A stretch of 64,000 bases of DNA from Methanobacteriota archaeon (GTDB lineage: Archaea > Thermoplasmatota > Poseidoniia > Poseidoniales > Poseidoniaceae). Under the pieces are notes generated by a model. That model saw only the letters and a program-made list of their open reading frames with translations. It was not told the origin of the DNA and searched no databases. How positions within the stretch are numbered: position 1 is the stretch's first letter; the number at the start of each line of letters is the position of its first letter. This document shows, in pieces, positions 6,416 through 47,725 of the stretch. Location: NCBI GenBank assembly GCA_002718195.1, contig PBDU01000017.1:53818-117817 (forward strand). The letters run 5' to 3'. A program made the position numbers and the translations under genes.

Positions 6416-9400
6416 TCAATTCTCATCGCCGAGAACTGAAATCAAAGAGGATTGCTCCTCTATTCTGGATTTGACTTCAGCTCTTCTTGACTTTCCAACC
6501 ATGAACGCAACTGCGGTTAGGGCTATGGTTAGCAGAATAACCAATCCAGGCAATGCTGCTGCACCTACAACAACACTTGCTTGATCTAGAACTGGATTAT
6601 TCGATGACAAGTCTTGGTTGACAGCTATGATGTTGTCTCCTTCTCTAGTCTCAACAATTTCGTTACTTGGATCAACTATGACGAAAACACCGTGTTTACC
6701 AGCGCTTACTGGGTAGAGAAGGTATATTTCTACAACTTTCTCGTCTTCAGCATCCGTTGGCTCAAGAATTGCTCCAACGACTTGTCTCATAACAACGTCT
6801 TCTTCTGCACAACCTTCCTTCTTTAGGTCAGCTAATGTGCCAGACTTGCTGTTTCTTGCTTCACAAAGAATGACTTCGATATCTGTGGCATGTGTGTTAC
6901 CATCATTTGCAATGACTACTTGGATCGGTATAGTTTCATCAACGCTTGCAGAATTTTCAACAACTGTTGCCTCCTTAACAACCAAGTTAGGTGCTCTTAA
7001 TCTCAGCGTAACTACTAACTCGTTTGTATCCAGCAAATCTCCTTCCCAAGATGGTGAATCATCGTAATCACCATCATCTTCCATGTTACCGAACTCAGAT
7101 ACTACCTTGAGCCCGATATCTGTTGTGATAAGAGGAGTATTTGGTGCAACTGTTACGATTGCGACCATCTCAATGGTTTCATACGCATCCATTCTTGGTA
7201 GTTGGTATCTGCCATCAGGGAAGACCACGCATATATCATCTGGGAATATGGTTTCATCTGCATCGACTTCTGTACAAGGTGCTTCTTGTGTTATCTCGGT
7301 ATTTAGTGCTACCAATTGTCTCCACTCAACACTTGAGCCAGCAAGTGCTCCCATTCCTGGTGTTTCACTCATGAAGTCATCATCACCAATTTCTTGTGTA
7401 GTGTGATTATTCAATGATGGTGTGTCTGGAACGTTACCGTTGTTGGTAATGTTGACCGTGAACTTGACATTTCTTCCTGGGGAAGTGGTCTTAATCGCAT
7501 TGTCAACGTTTGAATCCATGATAATTTGCATATCATGGAATTCGTTGACTTGGACATTGAATATCATCTGATCTCTTAGTCTGGTGTCTCTTCCGGACGA
7601 ATCAGGATATGCCTCTTCAGAGAATGCTTGGAATACTACTGTGTATTCTCCCGCTTCAACTCTATCTGGTATCTGCATTTCAATATCAAACTCCTGGAAA
7701 GTATCTCTGCTCAGTTCGGTGAGAACATCTCTAGGAACGTCGATTTCCCACAAGACGTCAACTCCATCTGCGTCTGTTACTCTCGCCAATCTGAAATCGT
7801 ACCTATCAGGGCCATTTCCATCGTTGACGACGGTAATTGGTAGTATGATATCCTCTCCTGGATTCACGCTCAAGTCTGTGCCAACTTCTGGGTCAACGCC
7901 TGCATTCAGAGAATATACGTGAATTACATTCGTGGATAAAATCACAGAATCAGAAATTCTTGGATATCCCTCTAAGTTGGCTTTTAGAGTTACAGCAGGA
8001 CCTAGACCAGAACTTGCATTAGTTGGTGCACAAACCTCGACTCTTACTTCATATGCGACCATATCTGCTCCGCCTGGTAATTCCCACAATCTTGGTTCAC
8101 TCATTGGCAGGGAGTTGCCTCCAGGTGCATCTGAGAAATCAACATCGACAGTCCAGTGTTCCTGCCTCCATGTGCTCATTTCCATGCCATCGGGCTTAGC
8201 CTCTGGAGCTCCTGGAGTTGTGAATACCAAGTTTCCAGAATCAAAGTTCTTGGTGACTTCAATCGGGTAGGTTGCACACTCGCCCGGCAGGACATATTCG
8301 TTCGTGTCAAAGATTTCGAAAACAATGTTTCCAGTTGATCTAATCGATACGAATACTTGCAATTCCAAAATATCGTATGTACCTTGTTGTACAGATTTAA
8401 CCGGCTCTCCTTCAGACCATCCCTTCAGATATATTACGAATAATCCAGGGTCCTCAGTAGTTGGAACGCTTACCTCTAGATTCTTGGTAATCGACTGTCC
8501 AGGGTCAAGTGATACCGATGTAGGGAAGTTTACTTGCCAACCGAATGGAAGAACCCACTCTGTTTGTCCCTCAAGGGTATTTGGATCCCAGAATATGAAA
8601 CTATCATACACGTTACCAGTGTTGGTTATTGTGATTGAAAATATAGCGGACTGTCCTTGTTCGATATCTGCCATGCTGTGAGATGTATCAAGATTGATTC
8701 CATGGACAACATCCATCTTTGTTAGAGTGGTTAGAACAGATTGTATGGCAGGATCGCTTGTTGATTTCGCTTCGACTTCAATCTGTGCAAATTCATCTCC
8801 GTTTGCCTGATAAATCGACGGGGCTCTTACACGCATGTAGAATCTGATATCTTCTCCACCCATCAAGAAAATATCCGTGTCAGGGAAGATAGCAGTGTGG
8901 TTGCTTGCAAAGAACAGTGTCGCAGTCCAGTTTTGTGGTACACCAGATGAAATGTTGAGGTTGTAAGTGTCGGCAACAAGATCAGTTGGTCCCGGAGTTG
9001 AGTTGTTAACGGTTAAGTTGTACAAGGTCTGCTCTCCTGGCTCAATAACGTGATAGTATGTTTCTCCAGCGTCAAATTCAACGTCAACCTGCCCGGTCAA
9101 GATGTGAGAGTAACAAATTGTAAATCTGTTATTATTTGGATTCTGATCACACAGGTTGGTATCGGACCAACCTACGTGAGCACCGCTTCCCAAATCGTTA
9201 GCGAATGCAGGCGGCATACCTATGGAAGGTTGCCTTCCGTTGTCAGGCCCTAGTTTGTTTGAATTCCACGATGTGACCGTGTATGTTTCCCATGGGTCAA
9301 GTGCTGTTTCGCCAGGTCCAGTGTTGCTAGTTGAATTTAATCTGGTGTAAACAATTTCTTCACTAGCGGAAAGGTTTCCAGAGTCAACCCATGCAACGTG

Positions 9401-11458
9401 GATATTGTTTTGATTATCTGTAAGCAATGCTGGGAATACGGAATTTCCTCCATATGGTGAGTTTGAAGGCAGACCACTGTTACCTTCTACGTTAGAGAGT
9501 GGAGTATCTTCAATTTGCTTGATAGCGTAGGTGGATAATCCCTCTTCTGCACCATCCCAAGCACCTGCCCCTTGCATTCTTAGCTTGGTGTAGTACACTT
9601 CGTAGTTGACATCCTTTTCAAACCCATAATCACGCCCGTCCATCCAAGCAATGTGTGTATTTCCTTGGTTATCAACGCCGATAGATGGGTGGAAGGAATA
9701 TGCATCGTCTATGGTTACACGGGTATCGTTTACAACGACTAGGTGACCATCAGCTGCAGCACCAGTATCTTCTGAATAAGTTCCTCCAGATGAATCGTGT
9801 CCGGGGTTTCCAGGAGTCCATGTTGGGTCATTGTTCATCTTAGCATATGGGTCGAGAATTGTGGTGTAAATCTCACGAGAGTTATTTGTAGAGATGTAAA
9901 CCATTGCTTCTACAAGCAAGTCCATGTTGTTTGAAGTTCCAGATGGGAATTCATAGACTTGACCGCCAGCATCAGTGTTTCTGATGGTGGATCCAGGACA
10001 ATTTCTGGATGACTGTGAAACTACTCCGTTTGGACATTGTGCAAGGTCCATGAAGTGAGACTCAACCGTGTTTGCGCCACCGTATGTTTGTCCATACATT
10101 CCTACTGGAACAACACCTGCTCTTACGCAGGAATCGTGTGCCTCTTCGATAGAGGCAGTATCATCAGCGCCAGTGGCAGGATCTCCGTCCTTTGGTCCTT
10201 CGTCAGAAATTGGCAGAACAATCTTTGTTGCGTTAGGGTTCCACTTGTGATCAGCACTGGTTGGAGGGTTTCCAGGAACATTTCCTGCAGCATCCTTCCA
10301 TGATAGACATGCCCAGTTTGTTCCTGGACCCCAGTTCTCAACGTGGTTGGATGGGTTGCCATTGTAGACTTCATTTGGAAGCTTTCTTAGTCCACCAGAG
10401 TCATCTCCAGGAGTTTGTCCCAATGGGTTAGTTCTTGGTCCGGAATTTTGGTTGTATGCAGCACAGTTTCCTTGGCTAGCAGCGCCAGGTAATGCGTTCC
10501 CCAAACCGTAAATAGTCTCATAAACAGTCATGTTTGCTTCACTCAGCATAGGCTTGATACCTTGGAAGTAACCACCACTAGCGAAATTACCTCCGTAAAT
10601 AACGGTACAAACATCAGCCCATTCGGAATACATGGAACCAGACGTGTCAACGATGAAAACAAGCTCTACCTTACCTCCTCTTGTGTCGTCCCATGCAATC
10701 TGAACATTGTCGTTAGCATCAACAACGATGTCAGGGTGTCCCTTGTGACCGATAATAGGAGTCAACAATGTGTCATCGAATAGGGTGATGACAGATGAGG
10801 AAGCAATGTCGGGTTGGAGCATTGAATAATAGATTTGAGGCTGGTTGAAGAACCTGTTAAGGTCATCGTAGTTGTCTTGCCATACTATGTGTAAGTTGCC
10901 TTGACTATCAACGTCAATTGCGGGCCAGTCTCTGTTTTGCGCTCTTTGAGAGATCACGGTATCGTCAATCGCAGTAATCGTTCCATCTGTTGTGGCTAGG
11001 CCATCTAGAGGTGCGTTGAATGGCGATAGAGCAGTGTACATGATCTTGTGCTGTCCGGATTTATCAGCCCAAACGATGTGAACCTTGTCATTCTCATCGA
11101 CGACCATGTCAGGATGTGCAATTTTGTGCAATCCTGAATTGGTAATTTGAGTAGCATCAATTAGTGTTTCGCCTCTTGGTGATAGCATAGAATAGTACAG
11201 GTGCTGAGAGTTTCTAGACCACGCAATGTGTACGTTTCCTTCAGAGTCTGAGTGGACTGCTGCTTGCATATCTGAAGAAGTTCCGCCGTTCACAACTTGA
11301 ACAGCTTCAGTAATTACAACTTGGCTTGCTTCAACGTTTTCGGTGTATACTGCCATTGCAGAAAAATAGGATAGCAGTAGAATCATTACAAGGGATACAG
11401 ATTTCGTAGTTTGTCTCATGTTGCGGACCTCCGGTAGTCTAACACCGTAAAGGCTCAA
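6416..11458 (-). CDS. very large secreted surface protein: signal peptide, repeated HIAW propeller-like modules with embedded vWA (MIDAS DTSGS) domain, CARDB-like NxG domains, C-terminal TM anchor
   Basis: N-term MRQTTKSVSLVMILLLSYFSAMAVY signal-like; seven copies of x-H-[IV]-[AVG]-W-x-D module; VELVFIVDTSGSMYSEW vWA MIDAS; ITITNTGNV / NITNNGNV / VIANDGNTHATDIEV / VVNDGNGPDRYDF CARDB-like motifs; C-term ALPGLVILLTIALTAVAFMVGKSRR anchor. Probable start at internal Met around 11419. Confidence 0.75.
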   Translation of the reverse strand: MSLYGVRLPEVRNMRQTTKSVSLVMILLLSYFSAMAVYTENVEASQVVITEAVQVVNGGTSSDMQAAVHSDSEGNVHIAWSRNSQHLYYSMLSPRGETLIDATQITNSGLHKIAHPDMVVDENDKVHIVWADKSGQHKIMYTALSPFNAPLDGLATTDGTITAIDDTVISQRAQNRDWPAIDVDSQGNLHIVWQDNYDDLNRFFNQPQIYYSMLQPDIASSSVITLFDDTLLTPIIGHKGHPDIVVDANDNVQIAWDDTRGGKVELVFIVDTSGSMYSEWADVCTVIYGGNFASGGYFQGIKPMLSEANMTVYETIYGLGNALPGAASQGNCAAYNQNSGPRTNPLGQTPGDDSGGLRKLPNEVYNGNPSNHVENWGPGTNWACLSWKDAAGNVPGNPPTSADHKWNPNATKIVLPISDEGPKDGDPATGADDTASIEEAHDSCVRAGVVPVGMYGQTYGGANTVESHFMDLAQCPNGVVSQSSRNCPGSTIRNTDAGGQVYEFPSGTSNNMDLLVEAMVYISTNNSREIYTTILDPYAKMNNDPTWTPGNPGHDSSGGTYSEDTGAAADGHLVVVNDTRVTIDDAYSFHPSIGVDNQGNTHIAWMDGRDYGFEKDVNYEVYYTKLRMQGAGAWDGAEEGLSTYAIKQIEDTPLSNVEGNSGLPSNSPYGGNSVFPALLTDNQNNIHVAWVDSGNLSASEEIVYTRLNSTSNTGPGETALDPWETYTVTSWNSNKLGPDNGRQPSIGMPPAFANDLGSGAHVGWSDTNLCDQNPNNNRFTICYSHILTGQVDVEFDAGETYYHVIEPGEQTLYNLTVNNSTPGPTDLVADTYNLNISSGVPQNWTATLFFASNHTAIFPDTDIFLMGGEDIRFYMRVRAPSIYQANGDEFAQIEVEAKSTSDPAIQSVLTTLTKMDVVHGINLDTSHSMADIEQGQSAIFSITITNTGNVYDSFIFWDPNTLEGQTEWVLPFGWQVNFPTSVSLDPGQSITKNLEVSVPTTEDPGLFVIYLKGWSEGEPVKSVQQGTYDILELQVFVSIRSTGNIVFEIFDTNEYVLPGECATYPIEVTKNFDSGNLVFTTPGAPEAKPDGMEMSTWRQEHWTVDVDFSDAPGGNSLPMSEPRLWELPGGADMVAYEVRVEVCAPTNASSGLGPAVTLKANLEGYPRISDSVILSTNVIHVYSLNAGVDPEVGTDLSVNPGEDIILPITVVNDGNGPDRYDFRLARVTDADGVDVLWEIDVPRDVLTELSRDTFQEFDIEMQIPDRVEAGEYTVVFQAFSEEAYPDSSGRDTRLRDQMIFNVQVNEFHDMQIIMDSNVDNAIKTTSPGRNVKFTVNITNNGNVPDTPSLNNHTTQEIGDDDFMSETPGMGALAGSSVEWRQLVALNTEITQEAPCTEVDADETIFPDDICVVFPDGRYQLPRMDAYETIEMVAIVTVAPNTPLITTDIGLKVVSEFGNMEDDGDYDDSPSWEGDLLDTNELVVTLRLRAPNLVVKEATVVENSASVDETIPIQVVIANDGNTHATDIEVILCEARNSKSGTLADLKKEGCAEEDVVMRQVVGAILEPTDAEDEKVVEIYLLYPVSAGKHGVFVIVDPSNEIVETREGDNIIAVNQDLSSNNPVLDQASVVVGAAALPGLVILLTIALTAVAFMVGKSRRAEVKSRIEEQSSLISVLGDEN

Positions 11459-11539: not shown

Positions 11540-12172
11540 TTAAGCCCATTCGCTAGGGTCGAAACTTGCCCCAAAAGACATCGTTTCATCAACCTCAATT
11601 TCATGTGTTTCAACCTCATCTTTTGCAGGGCTTTGTTTTGTTTGAACTTTTCTTGCTTTGTTCTCCCAATCATCTACAGGACCCGGTTTTCCTTTACCCG
11701 GGCCATATGAGAATTTGATTTCATGAATTAATGTTAATTTAGCAAGCCATAATTTTCTTAATGAATGCATTAATTCGTTTTTGCTTAATCCATCAAACCA
11801 AATCGGTAGGCTAACATTGAATGCCTGGAGTGATTCTTTTCCGGGTTTCTTGCCCATGTGAATCCCCCAATCAACTCCGCTTTTGATTAGGTTTAATCTC
11901 ATCTCATGCATCCATTCTTTCCAATCTTCTGTAGATTCTTTGATGTGAGTTTCCATCTCTTCTTGCTGCCCAATATCCACTCTGGTCATTGAACTGATAG
12001 CGACTAAATCTCGTCCTTTGGGAACCACGACTGCAAACATGTGACCTTGTTTTCCTCCGGGGTACTTTACAAGAAAGTGTGCTTCTGCCCTTTGATCAGG
12101 TTGCATCTTATAACTTAGATTCTCTTGTTTGAACCATTTTTTTAGCAAATCCACTGCATCGATGGGTCCCAT
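11540..12172 (-). CDS. hypothetical cytoplasmic protein (possibly DUF2299/YbjN-like)
   Basis: Clean 210-aa ORF, no TM; weak resemblance only. Confidence 0.4.
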   Translation of the reverse strand: MGPIDAVDLLKKWFKQENLSYKMQPDQRAEAHFLVKYPGGKQGHMFAVVVPKGRDLVAISSMTRVDIGQQEEMETHIKESTEDWKEWMHEMRLNLIKSGVDWGIHMGKKPGKESLQAFNVSLPIWFDGLSKNELMHSLRKLWLAKLTLIHEIKFSYGPGKGKPGPVDDWENKARKVQTKQSPAKDEVETHEIEVDETMSFGASFDPSEWA

Positions 12173-12235: not shown

Positions 12236-13930
12236 TCAGTACGCTGCTAACTCGTCTTTGATTTCTTTAGAAATCAATAAAATCTCTTCAGAGTATTTTC
12301 TTGCACATTTTAGTCTTCTTAATGCTCTAAAGAAGTCCATGCAAATATCCCAAGACCTTACTGCTAATGAGCAACTTAATCTGAATAACAAAATGATTGT
12401 GACAAAGATCGGGATTGAGGAAAAATAAATTCCAAATCCTTGACCGAAGACCTCATCTAAACCTAGCAATTCACCGTTTAACAAGACCATGGTAGTCAGT
12501 AAACAAGCCATAACAGGCCAGATTATTGTAGAGCCAAATAGTGCAGTTAAAAGATGAAAAGTAGTTCTTGCATCTAGTCCTTCATCGGTATTGTTCCCAA
12601 GAATCTGTCCAAAGAATATTTGAATCCCCATAGACAAAACGAACAGAGGAGAGAAAGCCAAAAACGAGAGCAGAATTATGAAATTGAAAGGTATTTTACT
12701 AGGTTTAAATCTTGATAATTTCTCTCCCGAGTCATCCAAATCTCTGCCATTTAGTTTGTGACTTGACAAGATTGATTCCAACTTTGTTGCACTTTCAATC
12801 ACCGGACATTCCATTTTGTTTGGTCTGGCGCCAGGTTCCCGATTAGCATAATCCCATTGTTCCTTTTCCCTTAGGAACTCCCTGATGGTTCGAGTATTCC
12901 TAACTTCATGATCCCATTGATTGTACGGATTTCCTTCCATTCTTGCTTTGTAGTGTCCGATTAAATTAGCAACACCATGCTCATCATGGGATTCAAAATC
13001 AGGTGTCATTGGGCGTAGCACCTCATGTAGTCTATCTCTTAGGTCAACCACGTTTTCTCGACCGGGTTCAACCCAGTCATTTTGCGAAACAGCCTCAACC
13101 AATTCATTTGGTATGTCTTCTTGCAGTATTTCGATTGGCTTTCCAAATTCAACGTAAGCATCAGTTCTGAAAATATGTCTTTTTCTGAAATGAAGCCCAC
13201 ATGGGACAACCACGGGTATTTGTTTTCCTTGACTTTTTGCAAGGGCAGCAGCAGCCAATACGGTTCTCATTGGTCCGGTTCTAAATTTCATCATCCATGC
13301 ATCTGAATGTGAAGTTCCCTCAGGGAATAATACAACTGAATGACTGGATGCGATTCCTTGAGCCAGTTTTAGCAATGATCTACCATTGAGATAATCTGCT
13401 TCTTCTTGGGTACAACCTCCTCTTAGGAGCTCAGCCTTTCTTAAAACTGGCTGGAATGCCATTCTTTTCGTCCAAAATCTGAGAATCGGTCTAGTAACTA
13501 AATCATGTCTACCAGCTAAAACAAAGTAATGCGGATGGGAGACATAAATGCACATTGGATCGACAAGACCATTGGTGTGCCATGCACAAACCATATTCCC
13601 TCTGTCGATTGGGATGTTTTCAATTCCTGATACATGGTCTTCTCTGAATAAGCCATACCTTACCTGTTGTAGTAGAAACATCCCAAACTTCGTCCAAAAT
13701 GGTGACCCTGGGGTTTCCTTAGAAAAATCTGGAAGTGGCGCATCTAATAATTTTTGAATGTTAACATTGGATGAAGACTTTGACAAAATAGGCAAAAGAT
13801 CACCATTTTGATCCACAGCCCCGTCATCCAAAGTCTCGATTTTTGCCAAGATCAAACCTCCATCAATTTTGAACTTAGATTGGATAATGAAGCATGGTCG
13901 GGGGATAGTCCAGTAGGCGAATTGGGCCAC
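12236..13930 (-). CDS. lysophospholipid/glycerol-3-phosphate acyltransferase family (PlsC-like) protein with C-terminal multi-TM domain
   Basis: Acyltransferase block I-like AWHTNGLVD (H-x5-D variant) and block III FPEGTSHSD; C-terminal about 150 aa contains 4-5 hydrophobic helices. ORF-track start overlaps HIT gene by 79 nt so true start is probably downstream or uses an alternative codon. Confidence 0.7.
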   Translation of the reverse strand: MAQFAYWTIPRPCFIIQSKFKIDGGLILAKIETLDDGAVDQNGDLLPILSKSSSNVNIQKLLDAPLPDFSKETPGSPFWTKFGMFLLQQVRYGLFREDHVSGIENIPIDRGNMVCAWHTNGLVDPMCIYVSHPHYFVLAGRHDLVTRPILRFWTKRMAFQPVLRKAELLRGGCTQEEADYLNGRSLLKLAQGIASSHSVVLFPEGTSHSDAWMMKFRTGPMRTVLAAAALAKSQGKQIPVVVPCGLHFRKRHIFRTDAYVEFGKPIEILQEDIPNELVEAVSQNDWVEPGRENVVDLRDRLHEVLRPMTPDFESHDEHGVANLIGHYKARMEGNPYNQWDHEVRNTRTIREFLREKEQWDYANREPGARPNKMECPVIESATKLESILSSHKLNGRDLDDSGEKLSRFKPSKIPFNFIILLSFLAFSPLFVLSMGIQIFFGQILGNNTDEGLDARTTFHLLTALFGSTIIWPVMACLLTTMVLLNGELLGLDEVFGQGFGIYFSSIPIFVTIILLFRLSCSLAVRSWDICMDFFRALRRLKCARKYSEEILLISKEIKDELAAY

Positions 13931-14283
13931 ATTGCCATCATAGACTTCCCCCCGTCGTCAGCATTTCTTGGAATAACATGGAAGTGCACGTGGGGAACTT
14001 CTTGTCCTGCCAACCTACCGTCATGTAGGACCACTGAAAAATCAGTCGTTTTGAAAACGATTCCCAATTTTCTTTGCACCTCTTGGACTCCTTGGATTAA
14101 ACAACCGGCTTCGTTTGCTGAAAGCTTGGCTAAGTGTGAGACACCTTTGTGTGGTACAACAAGAGTATGACCTGGTCTTCTTGGGTTGATGTCGAGGAAA
14201 GCATACCATCCTTCACCCTTGGCAACGCCATGCGAAGGGATTTCGCCTGAAATTATCCTTTCGAACAAGGTTTCATCTGCCAT
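13852..14283 (-). CDS. HIT-family (histidine triad) nucleotide hydrolase
   Basis: Histidine triad HVHFHVIPR; size 143 aa. Confidence 0.88.
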   Translation of the reverse strand: MADETLFERIISGEIPSHGVAKGEGWYAFLDINPRRPGHTLVVPHKGVSHLAKLSANEAGCLIQGVQEVQRKLGIVFKTTDFSVVLHDGRLAGQEVPHVHFHVIPRNADDGGKSMMAMWPNSPTGLSPDHASLSNLSSKLMEV

Positions 14284-14320: not shown

Positions 14321-15967
14321 TCAAGCAGGAGGTAAAACCCAGTTTCCAGAACTTCCTTTTCGGATAGCCAATTTGTCAGTGTTGGAATCTTTGTCAGCTA
14401 AACTATGATGCATCAGATCAGCATTAGTTTCCGGGAAGTCAATTCTTCTAAATGCGCCACGAGATTCCTCTCTGCTAATTGCTGAGGCAACCACAATAGT
14501 TGCTAATTTGACCGCTGTCTTCAGTTGTTGGTTCATCAAGAAGTTCGTATTTAGAACAAATGATTTGTTGTCCAAGTGAAGATTTGATGCCTTTTCATTC
14601 AAAGCATGTAAGTCCGTTTTTGCAGATTCCAAAGAGGCTGATGACCAACCAGAATCAACAACTGCGTTCATGATTGAATTTAACTTAGAAGAAATAACTC
14701 CTGAACGGATAACTAGTCCTTCTGAGTCCTCAAGTTGTGCTTTCAGATTGTCTTCTGCATTTTTGAATGCCTCATTCATGCTAGAAACAGCACCGAAACC
14801 TTGCTCCTTGCTCCATTCAGCAGCGGATTTTCCAGCAGCGTAACCGCTTGCTACTGAGTCAAGGAATGAATTTCCTGGTAGAGCAGAGGCGCCATGAAGA
14901 CCTGTGTTTGCTGCTTGTCCTGCTGCATATAATCCAGTAAACCAACGGGACCACTTGCCTACGACTGCCCTAGACTGCTCATCTACCGCTATTCCTCCGA
15001 TACTCATGTTAATTCGATTTTCAATAGCAATGGTTTGTTTGGATAAATCAATTCCACATCTAGATTTGACTCTTTCAAATTCTGTCGTCCACCATACAGA
15101 TTCAGCACCAAGATTTCTTGCATCCAAAATTGGATTTTTAGCGTTAGAAATAGCATCACATAGCGCTCCGATTCCTCCCGCTGTATCATATTCAATAGAC
15201 GAACCGTCTGATTCCAGAATTTCAGCTCCGTCTGCGAGTAACGTGGTTGGAAGAATCAGATTTGTATCTTTTATTCCAAGCGGACTTGAAGAAAAGAATT
15301 CCATATCGCACAACGGCAAACCAGCATCAGCAACTAAGCCTAAACCTAGACCTACTGAACCATCTGTGAAAATGTTTTGAGCGCCTTGGTCGGCTATGAT
15401 CAGAGCTTTACATTGTATAGAAATCAAATTACCGTTTATCATATCCATAACGATGATGCCGTTGACCCTTTGCTCGTCATGAACCAGTGAAATAGGCACC
15501 TGGTCGCCTCTTCTAACAACTCCGTGGCGCATTACTTGCTCCTCAAAAATCAACTGAGATTCTCTTTTGTTAGCGTCTCCAGCACCGCTTACTCTAGGTT
15601 TATTGTGACCTGGCAATTTCACGCTTGCGGGGATTCCTTTTTGATCTCTCTTCCAAGTAAAGCCCCACCTTTCCATCAAATCGAGTTGTCTAATCGCTTG
15701 ATTTGTGTAATGAACTACAATATCTTGGTTATTTAGGAATTCCCCGTTGCGAATGGTATCATTTCTGTGGTCTCTGCTTGTTTCCTCGTTAACATGTGCA
15801 GCAAACCCATCAACCGCTGAAGAATCTCCTGCGCCTAAGCTGCTTGAATTAATCAACAAAACATTCGCTCCGTTGCTTGCAGCCTCGCCTGCTGCTCTGA
15901 GACCTGCAATACTATCGCCGATGACTATGATGTCCCAAGCTTCCATGATACTATCTCCGCATGCCAA
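14321..15967 (-). CDS. FAD-dependent flavoprotein of the succinate dehydrogenase/fumarate reductase/L-aspartate oxidase family (orphan, non-canonical)
   Basis: N-terminal dinucleotide fold DIIVIGDSIAGLRAAGEAASNG (SdhA-like GLRAA), HGASALPGNSFLDSVASG resembling HGANRLGGNSL; covalent-FAD His position appears substituted; no SdhB/C/D neighbours. Confidence 0.7.
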   Translation of the reverse strand: MACGDSIMEAWDIIVIGDSIAGLRAAGEAASNGANVLLINSSSLGAGDSSAVDGFAAHVNEETSRDHRNDTIRNGEFLNNQDIVVHYTNQAIRQLDLMERWGFTWKRDQKGIPASVKLPGHNKPRVSGAGDANKRESQLIFEEQVMRHGVVRRGDQVPISLVHDEQRVNGIIVMDMINGNLISIQCKALIIADQGAQNIFTDGSVGLGLGLVADAGLPLCDMEFFSSSPLGIKDTNLILPTTLLADGAEILESDGSSIEYDTAGGIGALCDAISNAKNPILDARNLGAESVWWTTEFERVKSRCGIDLSKQTIAIENRINMSIGGIAVDEQSRAVVGKWSRWFTGLYAAGQAANTGLHGASALPGNSFLDSVASGYAAGKSAAEWSKEQGFGAVSSMNEAFKNAEDNLKAQLEDSEGLVIRSGVISSKLNSIMNAVVDSGWSSASLESAKTDLHALNEKASNLHLDNKSFVLNTNFLMNQQLKTAVKLATIVVASAISREESRGAFRRIDFPETNADLMHHSLADKDSNTDKLAIRKGSSGNWVLPPA

Positions 15968-16048: not shown

Positions 16049-17659
16049 TCACACCTTTGGAAGGGGCAAATCCCCGAATTTTCTTGCCTTTAGGATGCGA
16101 CGCAGTCTCTTCTTGAAAGGGTTGAAGGAAAATCTTCGAATTCTCGTAGTCCAAACCAATGAAGAAATAATTTCTTCATCCATATTACTTACGTTAAGTA
16201 TTACAAGATTTTCACCAAAAACATCTTTCGGCCAGGATAATCTTAGCCACATTATCGCACTGTTTTCCATAAAGTGAGGTAACTTCTCAACCACGTCAAT
16301 TTCTGTATTTGAGAATAATTCCAGTGGTTCAGAAATTTTTCCGCATGGTTTCAAACTGATCCTATGTTCTCGCGTCTTTGGCTCTCCTGATGGTGTCACG
16401 ATTTCCAAAATAAGATCTTGCCTTTTGTTGGTGTGATTGGTTAGTGCAATGAAAAGGTGGCCAATTCCAAATTCTGAGTATTCATCTAATGACCCATCCA
16501 CTCTCAGTCCACCGTATGCTGGCAATTTTCCTCTAATTAAATCGTCTTGAAGCCGACCGATTAGTTTCGAGGAACTGGGTTGCCATGCTCTTGCGTGCAG
16601 GATCAATCTTTGGATAGTTCTCCAATTCAGTGGGGCTTTGTCATTCATCAACAAAGAATCAATTCCCTCTTGTGTAAGGATTGATTTGACCTCTTTCATG
16701 GCAACCTCATCTGAAATTGTTTCATTAGCATTCAAAAATAAAATGTATAATAGCCTCTCTCTAACATGGTTTAGAGAAAACTCTGGTTTGATGACCTCGG
16801 ATAACTTTTCAATCCACTCGTCCCAGTCAATCTTCAAATCTGGATCTAGATGCGCCTCAATGATAGCTCCGAACATTGTATCAAATTGAGTTGAATGATG
16901 GGTTGGTGCATAGGATGAAAGAACGGGAAATTTATCTCCCATCTGTTGGATTAGCTTTGACGTAAGCGACGCATGGATTGATTGTATAACTCCTAAAATC
17001 GCACTAAATAGCAGAGTAATTAACCAGGGTTTGCTACCCACATCCACGACTGTCGATGCACACAATAGTGCAATCGAAGACAATACCAAAATTGTTTGAA
17101 TAGCATTTGTTTTCAGCATATTCAAATGGTCATCAGTAACTAAATCCATACCTGGACTACTGTCTAAGTCGTATTGTAATCCAAAGCCACCATCTTTCCT
17201 TAGACCCTTTTTTGAGTCGCTGGCAAGTCTAGAATATTCTCCGCACGCCCAAGCAGGACCTAAACAAAGTAGGACTACAGGGGTCCAGAAAGCAATAATG
17301 AATAGCGTGTAGGTTGTAAAATCTTCAGCAAGAACGTAGGTTAGGAACACATTGGAAAATATAAGCAAACCAAGTGCTGTTCGAAGGTATATCGATATTC
17401 TATTTCTTGCTAAGTTGCCCCAAAGTATCCTATTTTTTTCATACCTCTCCCAGTCCAATTTACTGGAATTCATAGCATCATCTGCTTTTGAGTAATCATC
17501 TCCATATGGTTGCGGCATCTCCAAGGGTTGACGCAGGTTTGAGATGCCAGAACCCGAGGACATTTGACTCAACGCTCCTAATACCTGTTGTCTTATGTGG
17601 GCTTCGCCATTTTTTCGAAGTTTTTTCAACATTCGATATAATCCGGGCCAATCCCGCAT
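16049..17659 (-). CDS. hypothetical membrane protein (about 4 TM helices plus approximately 300-aa C-terminal cytoplasmic domain)
   Basis: Hydrophobic helices between aa 95-230; no recognised motif. Confidence 0.45.
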   Translation of the reverse strand: MRDWPGLYRMLKKLRKNGEAHIRQQVLGALSQMSSGSGISNLRQPLEMPQPYGDDYSKADDAMNSSKLDWERYEKNRILWGNLARNRISIYLRTALGLLIFSNVFLTYVLAEDFTTYTLFIIAFWTPVVLLCLGPAWACGEYSRLASDSKKGLRKDGGFGLQYDLDSSPGMDLVTDDHLNMLKTNAIQTILVLSSIALLCASTVVDVGSKPWLITLLFSAILGVIQSIHASLTSKLIQQMGDKFPVLSSYAPTHHSTQFDTMFGAIIEAHLDPDLKIDWDEWIEKLSEVIKPEFSLNHVRERLLYILFLNANETISDEVAMKEVKSILTQEGIDSLLMNDKAPLNWRTIQRLILHARAWQPSSSKLIGRLQDDLIRGKLPAYGGLRVDGSLDEYSEFGIGHLFIALTNHTNKRQDLILEIVTPSGEPKTREHRISLKPCGKISEPLELFSNTEIDVVEKLPHFMENSAIMWLRLSWPKDVFGENLVILNVSNMDEEIISSLVWTTRIRRFSFNPFKKRLRRILKARKFGDLPLPKV

Positions 17660-19169: not shown

Positions 19170-19616
19170 ATGGCAAATATAAGAGACATTCAATTTGAGG
19201 ATTCAGAAGGGAATAAAACATCATTAAACCAAATAACAGATAAAAAAATCGTTGTCGTAAATGTGGCAAGCGCTTGCGGCTTGACCCGACATTATTCCGG
19301 CTTGCAAGAACTTGCAGACAGTGGACATCAAGTGGTAGCCTTCCCTTGTAATCAATTCGGGGGTCAAGAGCCGGGCACAATTCAGGAGATTTGTGAATTT
19401 GCATCTTCCAAATATTCTGTAACATTTCCTATAATGGCAAAAATCGAGGTAAATGGGGATTCACAAATTCCTTTGTACACCGAATTAAACAAAGCAACCG
19501 ATTCAGAAGGGCACACAGGCGAAATACGCTGGAATTTTGAGAAATTCATCGTAGATGTTGATGGAAATGTTTCCAGATTCGCACCAGCGACATCACCCTC
19601 AGATTTACCTCTGTGA
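19170..19616 (+). CDS. glutathione peroxidase (Cys-type)
   Basis: VVVNVASACGLT peroxidatic Cys motif, WNFEKFIV; ORF-track TTG start at 19104 overlaps cyclophilin; ATG at 19170 (MANIRDIQF) fits GPx N-terminus. Confidence 0.88.
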   Translation: MANIRDIQFEDSEGNKTSLNQITDKKIVVVNVASACGLTRHYSGLQELADSGHQVVAFPCNQFGGQEPGTIQEICEFASSKYSVTFPIMAKIEVNGDSQIPLYTELNKATDSEGHTGEIRWNFEKFIVDVDGNVSRFAPATSPSDLPL

Positions 19617-20471
19617 TTGTAGTCCCTTGATTCGATTTTCCCTGTGAGTTTGGGCAATCCATGCTTTACCCATCTCGATTCCGAGAAGATAATCTCTGGT
19701 TAGTTCAATATCAGTACCACCTAGTCTAGAACATGACAGACTCTGCACAGGTTGTATTTGTTGAATTTTCAAACCCTCAGGAGGGTTTTCTATTAGATCC
19801 ACAGTATCATTGTAAACATCTGCTCTACTCAGAAGTGCCTTTGATAATTCTGGCATACTTCTCTTAAGTAATCTAGACATTAGTTTTGATGATTTACCAT
19901 CGTTTCGGTAACCTGTGGGTCTTGACCGAATTACTAGAATCTCAGTGGCTCCTAAATCAATTGCAGTTTGCAGAGGAATGGGCATTGTAATACCGCCATC
20001 AAGGAATCTTTTTCCATCGATTTCTATTGGATTTCTAACTACCAAAGGTAATGCAGAGGTTGCCATAATAACATGCTTCAGGTCTTTTTTGGTTGGTTTA
20101 TTCACCTCTAATTTTCCAGAGTCAACATTTGAAAGAGTTGCGTAAAACTCCTTTTTTGGGTTTGAGAAAATTTGTTCAATATCAAGCGGCTGAATTTCCT
20201 CCCCTATCTCGAAGAGCAAATCTAAATCTAGGAAATCACCACCTTTCAAGAAGTCTGAGAAACGTTTGAATGCACTTTTTGTTCTTGGGTCTTTCAGAAT
20301 TGTAATAGATCTCATAGGCTGTTTTGCTAAATAACTTGACAGCAGAATTGCTCCTGCAGATGTGCCTAGATGTAGGTCGAAGTTGACATCATTATCGGCC
20401 ATAAAGGCATCTAAGACTCCGGCTGCAAATGCTCCTCTTAGGCCACCACCCTCGACAATTATCGCTTTCAC
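19605..20471 (-). CDS. patatin-like phospholipase
   Basis: Oxyanion GGGLRGAFAAG, nucleophile elbow GTSAGA (GxSxG), catalytic DGG in RFLDGGITMPIP. Confidence 0.85.
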   Translation of the reverse strand: MKAIIVEGGGLRGAFAAGVLDAFMADNDVNFDLHLGTSAGAILLSSYLAKQPMRSITILKDPRTKSAFKRFSDFLKGGDFLDLDLLFEIGEEIQPLDIEQIFSNPKKEFYATLSNVDSGKLEVNKPTKKDLKHVIMATSALPLVVRNPIEIDGKRFLDGGITMPIPLQTAIDLGATEILVIRSRPTGYRNDGKSSKLMSRLLKRSMPELSKALLSRADVYNDTVDLIENPPEGLKIQQIQPVQSLSCSRLGGTDIELTRDYLLGIEMGKAWIAQTHRENRIKGLQSQR

Positions 20472-25470: not shown

Positions 25471-28400
25471 ATGAGCAAAGACTCGTCTGATAATTCAGAT
25501 GAGTTGATTCGAAAGAAAAATTTTGGTAGAGCAACAGGAATTGACCTATCAGCATTTAATCTAAATCAGGATGTTGTTGAGAATAAAGAACCAGAACCCA
25601 AGCAAGAAATTCAGGAGCCTGAAATGGACCAAGCGGTTGGTGAAGTATACGAATTTTTCACAGAGGGTAAACAGGTTACAGAGGATAATGTTGAACAATT
25701 CGATAGCGTGACGGATTTCGCAGTTCAAGGAGAGAGTAGAGTAAGCGGTGGCTTGCTTGTCATGATGATTCTAACATACTCCATATTCGCAACATTGATC
25801 GGAACTGTGGTTCCTCAATTTATTGCGGCACCTACATTAGTAGCTTTGATCGTTAGTGGATTATACCTTGGCGAGCGTTGGATTCCAAACCCAAACATGA
25901 GGCTACTCGGTGTTACTTGGGTTATCATTTCTATGAAAATATTCTATGGTTTAGCAATCGATGCTCATCATTGGGGTTGGTTAGATGGGTTTGGAGTGGA
26001 TGAGGATATTGTTCTTGGAATTTCATTACTAGCCATAGTTGCTGTAAATGTATTCATCGCCCAAAGGCACAATGAGGACGCAATTGCTGCTCAGGCAACG
26101 CTAGTTCTTCTTGCAGTAGGTAGTGCTGCAGGAGCGATTTATGGGGAAATGGGCGTTGCAGTTATGATTTGTCTAGGAGTGATCTTATTCCATGTGCTTG
26201 CCTTTTTGAGAAATTCAGGTAATCTTGCAAGCCTTGGCATAGCAACATCATATCTATGGGTCGGTTTACATGCAATCTCGCAAAATTGGAAAATTGCAGG
26301 CATTGATTTCGTACCGTTTGAGGATGATTTGCTATTGTTCATCTTAATGTTCTTTGTCACAGGTATAAATGCCACCGTTGCAACTAGATTTTCAAGCGAA
26401 AGAAATTGGTTCTCGGATGGCTTTGAGGCACTAGGTCTTGGTAAACCCGGTCTGTGGTCAGTTTCTGTTGGTCTGGGAATGATTGGGGCATTTTTGGCCT
26501 TAACTGCATTTAGGGACCAAACCGGTTACGCATTGGCGCAATTGAGCTTACTTGGGTCTGCGTTCAGCGCGTCTTATCTTGTTGTGAGAGGAGTTTCCTG
26601 GAATAAGGTGATTGCATTTGTAGGATATCCTGCACCGATCTTACTAGCAATTCTAATTTTGATGACAGGGAGGGATACTGAACTATTTGGAGTTCTTTCC
26701 GGTTATGATGTATATTCTGTACTAACAGTGGTTTTGACCGGCTTTATTTTACTTCAAAATCAGACCAATGTTTCTGATCAAGTCATTTGGGGAGTGGGCG
26801 TTTCAGCCGTGCTTATTTTGACGATTTTAATCCCAGCCGAGGATTATTCCGGGGCAAGAATGTTGCTATACTCCCAGGCAGTTGTTTGGATTGGCATGGG
26901 CGCGTTGGCGCTTTTGAGAAAGTCGGCTGGTATTGCTGGCTTTTCTGTATTAGGGCCTTGGATTTGGTTGCTAATGGTTGCAAGTGGAGCAGAGGATAGA
27001 ATCATCTCAGTGGAAATTCTTCCTACTAATTTCCCAGAATATGATATGACCGCTGTAATTATTCTCATGCTTGTTCAGCAATATACAGTCAACGCCAAAT
27101 TAGGATCTACTAACCTCAATTTAGCAGCCGCAGTACCGGGGTTGAGTGAATTCGGTGCAAGGCTAAGAGATTCTAACTTCATGAATCTCTGGAATATAGG
27201 ATTCATTGTAGCATTGATTTCAATAAGTGCAATAACTCAGCCAGAAAAAGTACCAGCAGTTGGATTAATTGTTGCATTGAATTTGTTAGTAGTAGCGCAT
27301 GCAGCTATGGCTTATTTCCAAATTCATAGGGGAAATCCAAGGACCTTACTGGGTATATGGGGGGCATTTACGATAGTAATTTCATGGGTTTTTGGATACT
27401 CTCCATTCTGGACTCTCGGCTTGTTTATTGCCGTTCTACTGTTACTTCTTGATTCGGATAGATTGTTGCGTACTGATATTGCAAAACTCGATTTGGAAGC
27501 AAAAGAAGCGATGCCAGCAAAATTACTTACCATGTCTATGGGTTTGGTGGCAGGATATCTAATCGTTCTAATTTTAGAGCCGCCCAAACAAATCTATCTT
27601 ACCGGATATGACCTAATTTCTGATCGCGCTCTAGAAGCACAGTATCTAGGGTTTATTTCAGTCGGAATGTTGCTTTTGTATCTCAGAAGAGCAGCGAAAT
27701 TGGAGAAATTATTACCTCCTACCATATCTGCAGTTGGAATGATAATCTGCATTGCTTTGGCTGGGGGAGTATATGATTCACAAGAACTTCAGACGCTTGC
27801 AGCGGTAGTCTTTGTCGGCTCTGGACTTTGGTTGATATCACAAGGAGAAATACGCTCTTCAATGCGGTCTTTGGCAACAATTAACGAAAGATTACAGAGG
27901 CACCAGCTAATGTCCGAAGTTAATTACATGGAGTCAACTGTTGATGTTAGGCAAGATTCAAATCAACCCCCTAAGAGTCAACCAGTTCCAGAAACAGTGT
28001 TGAATGCGTCTCAAATACAAACAGAAGAAGTATTCGCAGCACAGCCCGAGCCACCTGGCGACTTTGAAGTTAGCACACCTTCAATACAAGCATTTGATGT
28101 AAGAAGTATTGAACTACTTGAAAAGCAAAAGAAGCGCGCTAAGCGTAGGTCAGTTGAAAGTGAGTATGACCTAATAGTCGGTGACATAAGTTACAATCCG
28201 ACAATCGTTATCTTATTCTTAGCAGTGTTGCAGTTATTTGGAATACTTGTTGCTTACAGCGGAACTAGTACTACGTTTATTCCCATTCTCGTAGTAGGTA
28301 CAATATCCGTCATGCTAATATTTGTAGCAAAACAAAGGGCTAAGTCATTCAGTCTTCGTTTGCCGGATTTATTAGGTCTCGAAGCTCCAATCGCAGCCTC

Positions 28401-29385
28401 AATGATAGGGCTTTCAGTAATTCTGTTGGCTGGCAGGATTGGATTAAGCCCAGTCTATATTGACGATCAACTAGATAGTATGTTTCTATTAGTGTGTTTA
28501 TCTGGATTAGCAGCTATAAACCTGATCGGTTTTTCAGATAAGAACCTCAGGTTATTGAGCTCATTAGAAGGTGTTGTTGGCTTGTATGCATTTGTGAGAA
28601 TAATCGGTTTATTTGCAGGAGGAGAAATGCCAATTCCATTCCGCATTAATCCCTTTGAAAATCCAATTTCATGGTCTGTTCCAATGCTAACCACTGAGAT
28701 ATTTCTCATAGGTGCTGCTGTTCTGTTTTGGAGTATTGAATCAAAGCATTTTGCTGAAGGGAGAGAAGATGTTAGGGGCGCAGGCGGCAGAATTGGTTGG
28801 TTTGCTCTGATTTTCATTCTCTCTTCTGGAATTGCCTCTTTGATTGCCTTAGTTTGCGTACTGAATACAGGAATAAAATGGAAACAACCAGCAGTTGTTT
28901 TGTCCACCTTTGTTTGTGTGCCCGCTTCGGTTTCACAACTACTATTCTGGCTGGAAGAATATATCCAATTCATAGAACCACTAGATAGATGGCATGTCTC
29001 AATTGCTTTCGGAGCAATATCTATGATGTCTCTTGTATATGTTATCAAAGAAAAGCTATCATTATGGCTTTCAACTTCAATTTGGGCAACTCACCTTCTG
29101 CTTGCATTTGCATCTTTCACTGGATTTGGATACAGTGGAGTTGTGGTGGCAATGTTGGTTTTGTCAGCATGCGCTTGGATACCCGGAGTTCTTACAATGC
29201 GCCGTGGTTGGAGATTGTTTGGAATGGTGGATTTGGTAATTGCATGGACAGTTATGGCTTCCGAATTGATGAATGGAGCCAGTTCAATTCAGGCATTGGT
29301 CATGTTGACAGCGACGATAGTTCTGCTCAGTGTGATTACTTACCTGACCCAATCACGAGAACAAGATATCATGGAATCATCATGA
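25471..29385 (+). CDS. giant polytopic integral membrane protein (1304 aa, roughly 30+ predicted helices), function unknown
   Basis: Continuous ORF with periodic hydrophobic 20-aa segments throughout, acidic N-terminal cytoplasmic region and one approximately 130-aa basic/polar central loop; no catalytic motif recognised. Confidence 0.6.
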   Translation: MSKDSSDNSDELIRKKNFGRATGIDLSAFNLNQDVVENKEPEPKQEIQEPEMDQAVGEVYEFFTEGKQVTEDNVEQFDSVTDFAVQGESRVSGGLLVMMILTYSIFATLIGTVVPQFIAAPTLVALIVSGLYLGERWIPNPNMRLLGVTWVIISMKIFYGLAIDAHHWGWLDGFGVDEDIVLGISLLAIVAVNVFIAQRHNEDAIAAQATLVLLAVGSAAGAIYGEMGVAVMICLGVILFHVLAFLRNSGNLASLGIATSYLWVGLHAISQNWKIAGIDFVPFEDDLLLFILMFFVTGINATVATRFSSERNWFSDGFEALGLGKPGLWSVSVGLGMIGAFLALTAFRDQTGYALAQLSLLGSAFSASYLVVRGVSWNKVIAFVGYPAPILLAILILMTGRDTELFGVLSGYDVYSVLTVVLTGFILLQNQTNVSDQVIWGVGVSAVLILTILIPAEDYSGARMLLYSQAVVWIGMGALALLRKSAGIAGFSVLGPWIWLLMVASGAEDRIISVEILPTNFPEYDMTAVIILMLVQQYTVNAKLGSTNLNLAAAVPGLSEFGARLRDSNFMNLWNIGFIVALISISAITQPEKVPAVGLIVALNLLVVAHAAMAYFQIHRGNPRTLLGIWGAFTIVISWVFGYSPFWTLGLFIAVLLLLLDSDRLLRTDIAKLDLEAKEAMPAKLLTMSMGLVAGYLIVLILEPPKQIYLTGYDLISDRALEAQYLGFISVGMLLLYLRRAAKLEKLLPPTISAVGMIICIALAGGVYDSQELQTLAAVVFVGSGLWLISQGEIRSSMRSLATINERLQRHQLMSEVNYMESTVDVRQDSNQPPKSQPVPETVLNASQIQTEEVFAAQPEPPGDFEVSTPSIQAFDVRSIELLEKQKKRAKRRSVESEYDLIVGDISYNPTIVILFLAVLQLFGILVAYSGTSTTFIPILVVGTISVMLIFVAKQRAKSFSLRLPDLLGLEAPIAASMIGLSVILLAGRIGLSPVYIDDQLDSMFLLVCLSGLAAINLIGFSDKNLRLLSSLEGVVGLYAFVRIIGLFAGGEMPIPFRINPFENPISWSVPMLTTEIFLIGAAVLFWSIESKHFAEGREDVRGAGGRIGWFALIFILSSGIASLIALVCVLNTGIKWKQPAVVLSTFVCVPASVSQLLFWLEEYIQFIEPLDRWHVSIAFGAISMMSLVYVIKEKLSLWLSTSIWATHLLLAFASFTGFGYSGVVVAMLVLSACAWIPGVLTMRRGWRLFGMVDLVIAWTVMASELMNGASSIQALVMLTATIVLLSVITYLTQSREQDIMESS

Positions 29386-46645: not shown

Positions 46646-47725
46646 GTGAAAATCTTTCACTATATTGATTTATTAAGCACAATTGGCTTGTTTAGAGGAA
46701 TCTCAGTGATACAGAGTAAATGCTCAGGCCATATTACTCTCATTTTTTCTATCCATGATAGTTCCTTACTTCCAAGAGCTCAAGGGTCGCGCGGCGTAGG
46801 TATTTGTTTAGAGGATGGGGTTAGAGTTGAACTTGTACATGCAGGAAAAGTCTCTCCGGATTCAGATGCAAGGACCAGTCATGGGCAATCAGTTGACATT
46901 CCTGCCGTCTATTCAAAGAAAGGTGATTTAATCGTCAATATTTATTCGATGAATGGCGAGAAATTTAGCGGTAGCGATTCAATGTACCATGACTTAGTGT
47001 CCGAGTTAAGAGAGATGTATCTTCTTTCAGAGTACGATTCCTTTGAATTAAACATATTTCTTGAATTACCGGTCTCACAAGGTTTCGGGATGTCTGCATC
47101 CGGTTTACTTTCGGCATCTCTAGCGTTTTTTGAATTTAGCAAAAAAGGGCGGCTAGATCAGTATGTAAGACTTGCACATAGGCTGGAACGGAAATACCAC
47201 GGAGGACTTGGAGACGTATTGGGAATATATCTCGGCGGAGTGGAGATGCGTACTATCGCAGGCAGCCCAGGTGCTGGAGGATTTGGTGTAAGTTTTGGTT
47301 CCAAAACTGATGTACTATTGGTTTGGGAAGACGAAGGAAAAAGGCATACATCGACGTATATAGACGACCCAAAATGGAAACTTTCCATTTCCGAAGCAGG
47401 AGATAAGTGCGTCGATGAGTTAAGTTCAGGAGCGTGGAATGAGGATAAATGGGAAAGCATTCTTGAAAATTCTATGAAATTTTCAAATGATTCAGGGATG
47501 CTTGAAGAAGATGTTAGAGCAAGTTTCCTTGCAAAGGTAAACTCTTCGATCGAAGCAATGGGTTTGTCAAACAAAGTTCAAGCATGTTTGTGCATGCTTG
47601 GTATATCAGCGGTGATTTTGCCAAAATCCTTAGATCAAGAGATTGCAACTGATCAATTACAAAATCTAGGAAAGGAGGTCCAAAGATTGGGTCTCGAGTA
47701 CAAAGTGTCTAGGATTGAGGGTTAG
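46646..47725 (+). CDS. GHMP-family kinase (pantoate kinase-like candidate)
   Basis: GHMP motif LPVSQGFGMSASGLLSASLA; N-terminal GHITLIF resembles archaeal pantoate kinase HITGFF; assignment within family uncertain. Confidence 0.55.
   Translation: MKIFHYIDLLSTIGLFRGISVIQSKCSGHITLIFSIHDSSLLPRAQGSRGVGICLEDGVRVELVHAGKVSPDSDARTSHGQSVDIPAVYSKKGDLIVNIYSMNGEKFSGSDSMYHDLVSELREMYLLSEYDSFELNIFLELPVSQGFGMSASGLLSASLAFFEFSKKGRLDQYVRLAHRLERKYHGGLGDVLGIYLGGVEMRTIAGSPGAGGFGVSFGSKTDVLLVWEDEGKRHTSTYIDDPKWKLSISEAGDKCVDELSSGAWNEDKWESILENSMKFSNDSGMLEEDVRASFLAKVNSSIEAMGLSNKVQACLCMLGISAVILPKSLDQEIATDQLQNLGKEVQRLGLEYKVSRIEG

Follow-up and report, generated by a model that had tools for sequence, protein, structure and literature searches.

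Which acylation does the putative glycerolipid acyltransferase of Marine Group II (MG-II) archaea carry out? We analyzed a 64,000-nucleotide stretch of DNA, called the window here (positions 53,818 to 117,817 of contig PBDU01000017.1, assembly GCA_002718195.1), from a Methanobacteriota archaeon of the Poseidoniaceae. Its minus strand carries an acyltransferase gene, most likely for a 537-aa product, directly downstream of a gene for a HIT hydrolase. A first-pass annotation made from the letters alone called this gene PlsC-like. The protein very probably belongs instead, judging by its sequence, to the HX5D branch within the superfamily of glycerol-3-phosphate acyltransferases and lysophospholipid acyltransferases (GPAT/LPLAT), the branch that resembles the yeast enzymes Sct1 and Gpt2. 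As an explanation of the whole, a membrane-anchored HX5D O-acyltransferase of Sct1/Gpt2-type build that would use acyl-CoA on sn-glycerol-3-phosphate (G3P) seems to us somewhat better than an even bet. To acylation of the sn-1 position of G3P specifically we would give a little less than an even chance.

A Pfam scan matched the protein to PF01553 (Acyltransferase) with E=1.9e-8 and 34.6 bits, above the gathering cut-off of 23 bits, which places it in the GPAT/LPLAT superfamily. The same family matched 14 of 14 aligned family members. The two blocks on which the first-pass annotation relied are present, H-x5-D as HTNGLVD at residues 91–97 and FPEGTSHSD at residues 175–183. In the 14-member alignment, whose members are 44–85% identical to the window protein, the blocks AWHTNGxxD, GRHDLVTRP, QPVxRKAELLRGGC, FPEGTSH, PxGLHFR, LxGRD and the acidic loop TDEGxDARTT are invariant, as are five arginines (R114, R120, R137, R143 and R157). 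The spacings between motifs I–II, II–III and III–IV are about 35, 34 and 31 residues. H-x5-D and FPEGTSH are kept in all 120 listed of the 555 homologues found in the first search, so these motifs are not due to chance. Among relatives of at least 400 aa in which motif III could be located (390 of 455), all but one have HxNxxxD upstream of FPEGxSH. Loss of the catalytic His or Asp in orthologues had been named as an observation that would overturn the assignment; both residues are invariant, and by its sequence the acyltransferase is catalytically intact.

The match to PlsC is one of superfamily and fold, not of family. The protein scored 23.8 bits on TIGR00530, about 80 bits short of the cut-off of 102.95, it has HX5D instead of HX4D, and it is a protein of 537 aa with C-terminal helices; membership in PlsC was rejected. 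Beyond two weak glycerophospholipid acyltransferase matches, no model was matched in the NCBIfam scan. PlsC (5KYM from T. maritima) shares the catalytic fold and the order of motifs I–IV, but it has HX4D, about 240 aa and N-terminal helices as its only anchor. The H-x5-D spacing, which had been taken as a departure from the canonical H-x4-D, marks a known branch that contains the Sct1/Gpt2-type GPATs as well as SqdA, SalA and OlsF.

HX5D sets the fungal microsomal GPATs apart from all other groups of GPATs and dihydroxyacetone phosphate (DHAP) acyltransferases analysed, which have HX4D (Smart et al. 2014, PMC4207751). The fungal group fGPAT-A includes Sct1/Gat2 and Gpt2/Gat1, and fGPAT-B is found in Basidiomycota and basal lineages (PMC4207751). 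Sct1 and Gpt2 have HX5D and 3–6 membrane helices and prefer G3P over DHAP; Sct1 prefers palmitoyl-CoA (PMC7613133). The published fGPAT-B consensus is HxNx-phi-phi-D / phi-P-phi-xR / FPEG[T/G/I]S[H/Y]x / phi-phi-P[V/C/T]-pi, with spacings of 36–40, 21–104 and 29–35 (PMC4207751). The archaeal HTNGLVD fits HxNx-phi-phi-D, and QPVLRK, FPEGTSHS and VVPCG fit motifs II to IV. There are two departures: the first spacing is one residue short, and motif II begins with Gln where the consensus has a hydrophobic residue. The archaeal protein has in common with Sct1, Gpt2 and fGPAT-B an HX5D whose third position is Asn, FPEGxSH, a motif IV of phi-phi-P-[V/C]-G and hydrophobic helices after the catalytic domain; its motif spacings fall in the fGPAT-B ranges or miss them by one residue at most. 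In contrast, the fungal enzymes are longer (about 600–760 aa) and have a Ser-rich or acidic regulatory tail that is not in the archaeal protein. The archaeal protein, about 22% identical to them, has GRHDLVTRP and TDEGxDARTT as invariant blocks of its own, an archaeal host and a HIT operon.

The likeness extends beyond the catalytic domain. In a profile search of 1.84 billion cluster representatives, 2658 matches reached E<=1e-3. After the archaeal family itself, the next tier consisted of proteins of about 450–530 aa (E 1e-38 to 1e-20) that were covered from the catalytic domain to the first membrane helices. When one of these (P0175) was used as query, Myxococcota and Gemmatimonadota proteins were found. 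Many of the bacterial relatives are labelled by JGI 'glycerol-3-phosphate O-acyltransferase / dihydroxyacetone phosphate acyltransferase', which we take to be KEGG's name for the orthologue group of yeast Sct1/Gpt2. The relatives of P0253, a eukaryote-looking protein of 794 aa, were mostly bacterial (Acidobacteriota, Longimicrobium, Myxococcales), together with three basidiomycete proteins of about 595 aa; Sct1 and Gpt2 were not among the matches of the homology search with P0253. Aligned with hhalign, the archaeal profile matched the bacterial family profile with a probability of 100% (E=4e-40, 379 columns, 26% identity) and the profile of the basidiomycete proteins (P0534, P0536, P0537) with a probability of 99.2% (E=3e-19, 364 columns). 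Both alignments span the middle region, helix 1, the loop and helix 2, which is the homology outside the catalytic domain, with C-terminal membrane helices, expected of the fungal family. Because they extend through it, the C-terminal membrane region is part of the ancestral architecture of the HX5D branch and not a gene-specific fusion to the catalytic domain, as had been proposed. The placement near Sct1/Gpt2 draws on published motifs, spacings and descriptions and on the basidiomycete proteins as stand-ins.

In a neighbour-joining tree of 115 non-redundant HX5D relatives, the archaeal family formed one clade (100 of 100 bootstraps) on a long branch outside every bacterial clade. The tree was built by a simple distance method with no outgroup and gives no direction of transfer. 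The nearest non-archaeal relatives are the HX5D proteins of about 450–530 aa from Myxococcota, Gemmatimonadota and Acidobacteriota, which share the length class, the motifs, the middle region and the membrane helices. They form a separate clade and have WHPNG where the archaeal proteins have WHTNG, and the loop that joins their helices 1 and 2 is basic, not acidic. Kinship with non-lipid acyltransferases would have spoken against the assignment, and the relatives found are lipid acyltransferases. No HIT or DUF2299 gene was found beside the bacterial relatives examined (loci L008 and L009). We also looked for alkyl-DHAP synthase beside the myxobacterial homologues as a functional hint, and the same two loci were uninformative. 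A second HX5D acyltransferase family, P0219/P0292 (533 aa, SWHPSGLIDP / FPEGMTHTD), branches at the base of a bacterial clade. Its members (L007, 804..2405; L090, 10001..11602) are assigned to a 'Euryarchaeota archaeon' genome bin and adjoin CoxS/CoxL/CoxM-like molybdenum dehydrogenase genes; gene transfer or mis-binning may account for their presence there.

The fold is consistent with this placement. A search with the AlphaFold2 model matched GPAT1, PlsC and plant GPAT, as expected of an alpha/beta acyltransferase fold, and the best Foldseek match was PlsC (T. maritima 5KYM). A profile search of the sequences of solved structures gave nothing significant, with T. maritima PlsC only at E=0.58; in that alignment to 5KYM there is a one-residue gap between the PlsC His and Asp. 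The first-pass annotation was right that hydrophobic helices follow the catalytic domain, but it counted four to five, and both hydropathy and AlphaFold2 give three. The same three hydrophobic segments are present in 10 of 10 archaeal family members examined, and they are predicted to anchor the enzyme in the membrane. Lys/Arg-rich segments lie both before helix 1 and in the C-terminal tail, which favours an even number of spans. The conservation of the acidic loop TDEGxDARTT suggests that it is a functional site. PlsC has N-terminal helices that touch the membrane, and by analogy the helix at residues 50–67 of the archaeal protein is a possible interfacial anchor.

Taken from the N-terminus, the protein consists of an amphipathic helix, a catalytic domain with motifs I–IV, about 150 residues of helical middle region, and hydrophobic helices with a conserved acidic loop. 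The Sct1/Gpt2-type enzymes and their bacterial relatives of ~500 aa are built in this way, and PlsC is not. By analogy with characterized GPATs, His91, polarised by Asp97, would deprotonate the hydroxyl of a glycerol-phosphate acceptor, and this hydroxyl would then attack the thioester of acyl-CoA. The phosphate of the acceptor would be held by Arg137 of motif II, the conserved Arg expected from studies of other GPATs to bind it, together with Ser180 and His181 of motif III. The C-terminal helices would hold the enzyme at the membrane, where the product lysophosphatidic acid would leave. In Poseidoniales the acceptor would most likely be sn-G3P, because these archaea have a G3P dehydrogenase and no sn-glycerol-1-phosphate (G1P) dehydrogenase. 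The donor would most likely be acyl-CoA, because Poseidoniales have fatty-acid degradation genes and because archaea are generally held to be without acyl carrier protein (ACP). In the published survey, G1P dehydrogenase was present in 0 of 270 Poseidoniales genomes, G3P dehydrogenase in almost all genera and fatty-acid degradation genes in all genera (PMC6461757).

The enzyme may also work in the manner of PlsC. It would then be an sn-2 acyltransferase of a lyso-lipid, with lysophosphatidic acid as one candidate and, as another, a lyso-lipid of the ether type, for example sn-1-geranylgeranylglyceryl phosphate, and in the latter case would give a 'chimeric' ether/ester lipid. We consider this possible, though on the unlikely side. 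Public databases, both NCBI and JGI, already name the archaeal family 1-acyl-sn-glycerol-3-phosphate acyltransferase, and every bacterial HX5D enzyme of proven function does a second, lyso-lipid acylation (bioRxiv 10.1101/2022.08.18.504050; PMC8319176). The idea of chimeric lipids in MG-II has itself been published (PMC6962369, which credits it to Villanueva et al.). However, the TIGR00530 score and the HX5D motif do not suit an enzyme of the PlsC family, and in length and C-terminal architecture the protein agrees with GPAT-type relatives over about 370 columns. Such an enzyme would also have to find its substrate. PlsY was undetected in archaea other than Loki- and Thorarchaeota in one study (PMC6737245), and without PlsY or another sn-1 enzyme, for which no search was made, there would be no acyl-lyso substrate, unless it is an ether lipid. 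A non-phospholipid acceptor seems improbable to us. In that case the enzyme would acylate an amino-, sulfo- or glycolipid lyso-form as SqdA, SalA and OlsF do, or re-acylate lyso-lipids scavenged from the environment. HX5D and FPEGxS are in common with SqdA, SalA and the N-domain of OlsF, MG-II archaea, as heterotrophs, break down lipids and proteins (PMC6461757), and a patatin-like lipase is encoded 5 kb away. Yet the invariant R114, R120, R137, R143 and R157 suit, without proving, an acceptor that bears phosphate. No head-group biosynthesis genes were found adjacent; in particular, neither the window nor 80 related loci have sqdBDC-like or ols-like genes close to the acyltransferase. The full-length architecture is common to GPAT-type proteins, and the two weak NCBIfam matches are both to glycerophospholipid acyltransferase models. 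By published descriptions, SqdA, SalA and the OlsF N-domain share HX5D, FP[E/S]G motifs and the superfamily, and differ in acceptors without phosphate, in the use of acyl-ACP by SqdA and in having neither the long middle region nor the C-terminal membrane region. In the papers on these enzymes, BLAST E<=1e-40 is the mark of a close relationship. That the protein has kept the fold but is non-catalytic, or does not act on lipids, is very improbable, since none of the four catalytic and binding motifs varies among proteins only 43–47% identical overall or across 225 species.

Several points weigh against a G3P acyltransferase. HX5D fixes neither acceptor nor donor, because the lyso-lipid acyltransferases SqdA, SalA and OlsF-N of bacteria carry it too (bioRxiv 10.1101/2022.08.18.504050; PMC8319176), and the motif does not discriminate between these families. 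These enzymes add the second acyl group to sulfoquinovosyl, sulfonate-amino and ornithine lipids (same sources); their acceptors have non-phosphate head groups, and SqdA uses acyl-ACP (bioRxiv 10.1101/2022.08.18.504050). The only assayed relatives of the archaeal build are the distant Sct1 and Gpt2, and the archaeal clade, the close bacterial clades and fGPAT-B are known by sequence. The basidiomycete proteins stand for fGPAT-B by taxonomy and motifs alone, and likeness to Sct1, Gpt2, SqdA, SalA and OlsF was judged from published descriptions and not from sequence distances. The AlphaFold2 model is of medium quality (predicted local distance difference test score, pLDDT, 75.5), with the lowest values around motifs I and III, and three helices with positive charge on both sides give no self-consistent topology. 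Synteny in Poseidoniales also extends over the wider region, which makes gene order by itself weak evidence for a functional link with HIT. Finally, field lipid studies have yet to show which lipids MG-II makes (PMC6962369).

The acyltransferase gene was delimited from its junction with the HIT gene. In the list of open reading frames (ORFs), 12236..13930 (minus strand) is a 564-aa ORF with a GTG start. This ORF was rejected as the gene: it would overlap HIT by 79 nt, and both the lengths of homologues and 76 related loci favour the TTG at 13849. The junction reads ...GGAGGT-TTGA-TC-TTG..., in which the HIT stop codon TGA occupies 13854..13852 and the TTG starts 2 nt later. Purine-rich motifs like the GGAGG occur at the same place in related loci. 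The distance from the HIT stop to the nearest in-frame acyltransferase start was −14 to +2 nt in all 76 loci, with a 4-nt overlap (29 loci) and a 2-nt gap (19 loci) as the commonest cases; in the closest species, 84% identical, the gap is 2 nt as in the window. This distance is biased toward small gaps by the choice of the nearest start, yet a start codon is at that position in every locus. Homologues found in the search are 535–545 aa long, in agreement with a 537-aa product. Because these lengths and the 76 junctions fit the TTG at 13849, the gene is most likely 12236..13849. The abutting stop and start codons and the Shine-Dalgarno-like motif inside HIT point to co-translation of HIT and the acyltransferase, and the two genes would also share one transcript, in which the Hint-type HIT gene comes first.

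To survey the distribution of the family, one genome per GTDB species was scanned with two family-specific peptide patterns, of which GRHDLVTRP was one, and 225 genomes encode a relative. The analysis of loci covers the best 80 of these 225. All were from Poseidoniales, Thermoplasmatota or "Methanobacteriota" metagenome-assembled genomes (MAGs), including the original MG-II genome CM001443.1, with one exception. The acyltransferase gene is core to Poseidoniales. The exception (L032, CALDQY010000281.1, 1826 nt) encodes an MG-II-type acyltransferase of 48% identity in a Rhodobiaceae bacterium bin; mis-binning, not gene transfer, is the most likely reason.

The gene order around the acyltransferase is conserved. 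The HIT neighbour reported in the first-pass annotation is the next gene upstream in 76 of 76 assessable loci, and a DUF2299 gene is the next one downstream in 74 of 74 and also in L001–L006. One solved structure of a DUF2299 protein, 3CXJ, is of unknown function. An SdhA/NadB-like flavoprotein gene precedes HIT in 63 of 63 assessable Poseidoniales loci; in the window, it has no SdhB, SdhC or SdhD genes beside it. The order SdhA-like, HIT, acyltransferase, DUF2299 holds on contigs with members of 44–45% identity and on two with more divergent members. There is a precedent for a HIT gene near lipid genes in mycobacteria, where Rv2613c lies beside pgsA1, patA and pimA. In related contigs, a counterpart of the probable surface protein (1683–1714 aa, with faint CARDB, NPCBM_assoc or CLIPPER matches) is always downstream of DUF2299; in L001 it is split into several ORFs. 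L001–L004 have ORFs of 506–516 aa without a Pfam match at the position of the 536-aa protein of the window. The coordinates of all features are given in Table 1.

Table 1. Features of the acyltransferase locus and of other genes discussed, in window coordinates (aa, amino acids).
Feature	Coordinates	Strand	Basis and remarks
Acyltransferase gene (most likely extent)	12236..13849	-	537 aa; start TTG 13849; stop codon 12238..12236; PF01553; probable HX5D branch of GPAT/LPLAT superfamily
GGAGG Shine-Dalgarno-like motif	13857..13861	-	Inside 3' end of HIT, 7 nt before TTG 13849; from sequence
N-terminal amphipathic/hydrophobic helix, residues 50–67, PFWTKFGMFLLQQVRYGL	13649..13702	-	AlphaFold2 helix 50–67; ahead of catalytic domain
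Motif I, H91-T-N-G-L-V-D97 (HxNxxxD = HX5D)	13559..13579	-	Putative catalytic His/Asp pair; W-H-T-N-G..D invariant in 14-member alignment
GRHDLVTRP block	13487..13513	-	Invariant; follows motif I and precedes motif II; bacterial relatives have 'ARHGLFRxP' at the aligned position
Motif II, Q133-P-V-L-R137-K	13436..13453	-	Within invariant Q-P-V-x-R-K-A-E-L-L-R-G-G-C
Motif III, F175-P-E-G-T-S-H-S-D183	13301..13327	-	FPEGTSH invariant in alignment
Motif IV, V214-V-P-C-G218	13196..13210	-	P216 and G218 invariant
End of catalytic domain and helical middle region, residues ~219–384	12698..13195	-	Includes invariant L-x-G-R-D; AlphaFold2 helices 248–363; hhalign coverage; common to bacterial and fungal relatives
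C-terminal membrane region, three hydrophobic helices (385–414, 431–458, 471–497)	12359..12697	-	Hydropathy; AlphaFold2 helices 383–419, 425–457, 474–536
Acidic loop T421-D-E-G-x-D-A-R-T-T430	12560..12589	-	Invariant in alignment; between hydrophobic helices 1 and 2
Hint-type HIT hydrolase	13852..14283	-	143 aa; HVHFHVIPR; PF01230 E=1.3e-25; structure-database relatives are Hint/HIT proteins
DUF2299 gene	11540..12172	-	210 aa; PF10061 E=6e-16; immediately downstream, same strand
SdhA/FrdA/NadB-like flavoprotein	14321..15967	-	548 aa; FAD_binding_2 and Succ_DH_flav_C; below every NCBIfam cut-off
Probable surface protein	6416..11458	-	1680 aa
Protein with hydrophobic segments	16049..17659	-	536 aa; no Pfam or NCBIfam match
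Patatin-like phospholipase	19605..20471	-	PF01734 E=4e-21; C-terminal DUF6363; 5 kb from acyltransferase, outside its operon
GHMP-kinase-family ORF	46646..47725	+	Downstream of ribosomal protein S13, S4 and RNA polymerase subunit genes
Very long ORF	25471..29385	+	1304 aa; no Pfam match

Elsewhere in the window, scans of 36 ORFs gave as other lipid genes only the patatin-like ORF, whose earlier identification was confirmed by Pfam, and the GHMP-kinase-family ORF, a possible mevalonate kinase gene for isoprenoid synthesis. The patatin-like ORF also matches weakly the model of a CBASS cGAMP-activated phospholipase (35 bits vs a cut-off of 200). No second copy or paralogue of the acyltransferase was found in the window by tblastn, and there are no tRNA or Rfam features. 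The assignment of the DNA to a Ca. Poseidoniales (Marine Group II) archaeon, made at first from the letters, stands because topoisomerase VI A and B are encoded in the window and because the named homologues, among the 120 listed of 555, are all from Ca. Poseidoniales or unclassified Euryarchaeota MAGs.

That MG-II has acyl-ester lipid enzymes is not new, as the first-pass annotation had noted. Putative PlsC homologues and mixed or bacterial-type membranes have been discussed for this group since Villanueva et al. 2017, as that work is cited in PMC6962369, PMC7852524 and PMC6461757. Field studies have found no tetraether lipids (glycerol dialkyl glycerol tetraethers, GDGTs) derived from intact polar lipids in waters dominated by MG-II (PMC6962369). 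Our literature search found no paper that places the archaeal family in the HX5D/Sct1-Gpt2-like branch or that notes its conserved coupling to HIT. These two points appear to be a new but incremental refinement, which sharpens a known puzzle about MG-II lipids; the presence of the acyltransferase in the lineage is already published.

The "PlsC" of MG-II resembles by sequence the class of yeast enzymes that does the first acylation, and this shifts the choice of reaction to test. With a GPAT-type enzyme the sn-1 step would be provided for, and the apparent gap of an sn-2 enzyme without an sn-1 partner would close. The family offers for expression and assay a concrete candidate gene that is conserved universally and whose catalytic residues are defined. 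The sequence finding by itself does not show that ester lipids are made, and we think it doubtful that the archaeal enzyme, as an HX5D GPAT of eukaryote/bacterium type, is the missing sn-1 G3P acyltransferase of MG-II, which would start acyl-ester (phosphatidic-acid-type) lipid synthesis on G3P. If this were true, the most abundant planktonic Euryarchaeota would build their membrane at least partly from fatty-acyl glycerolipids and not from the canonical archaeal ether lipids.

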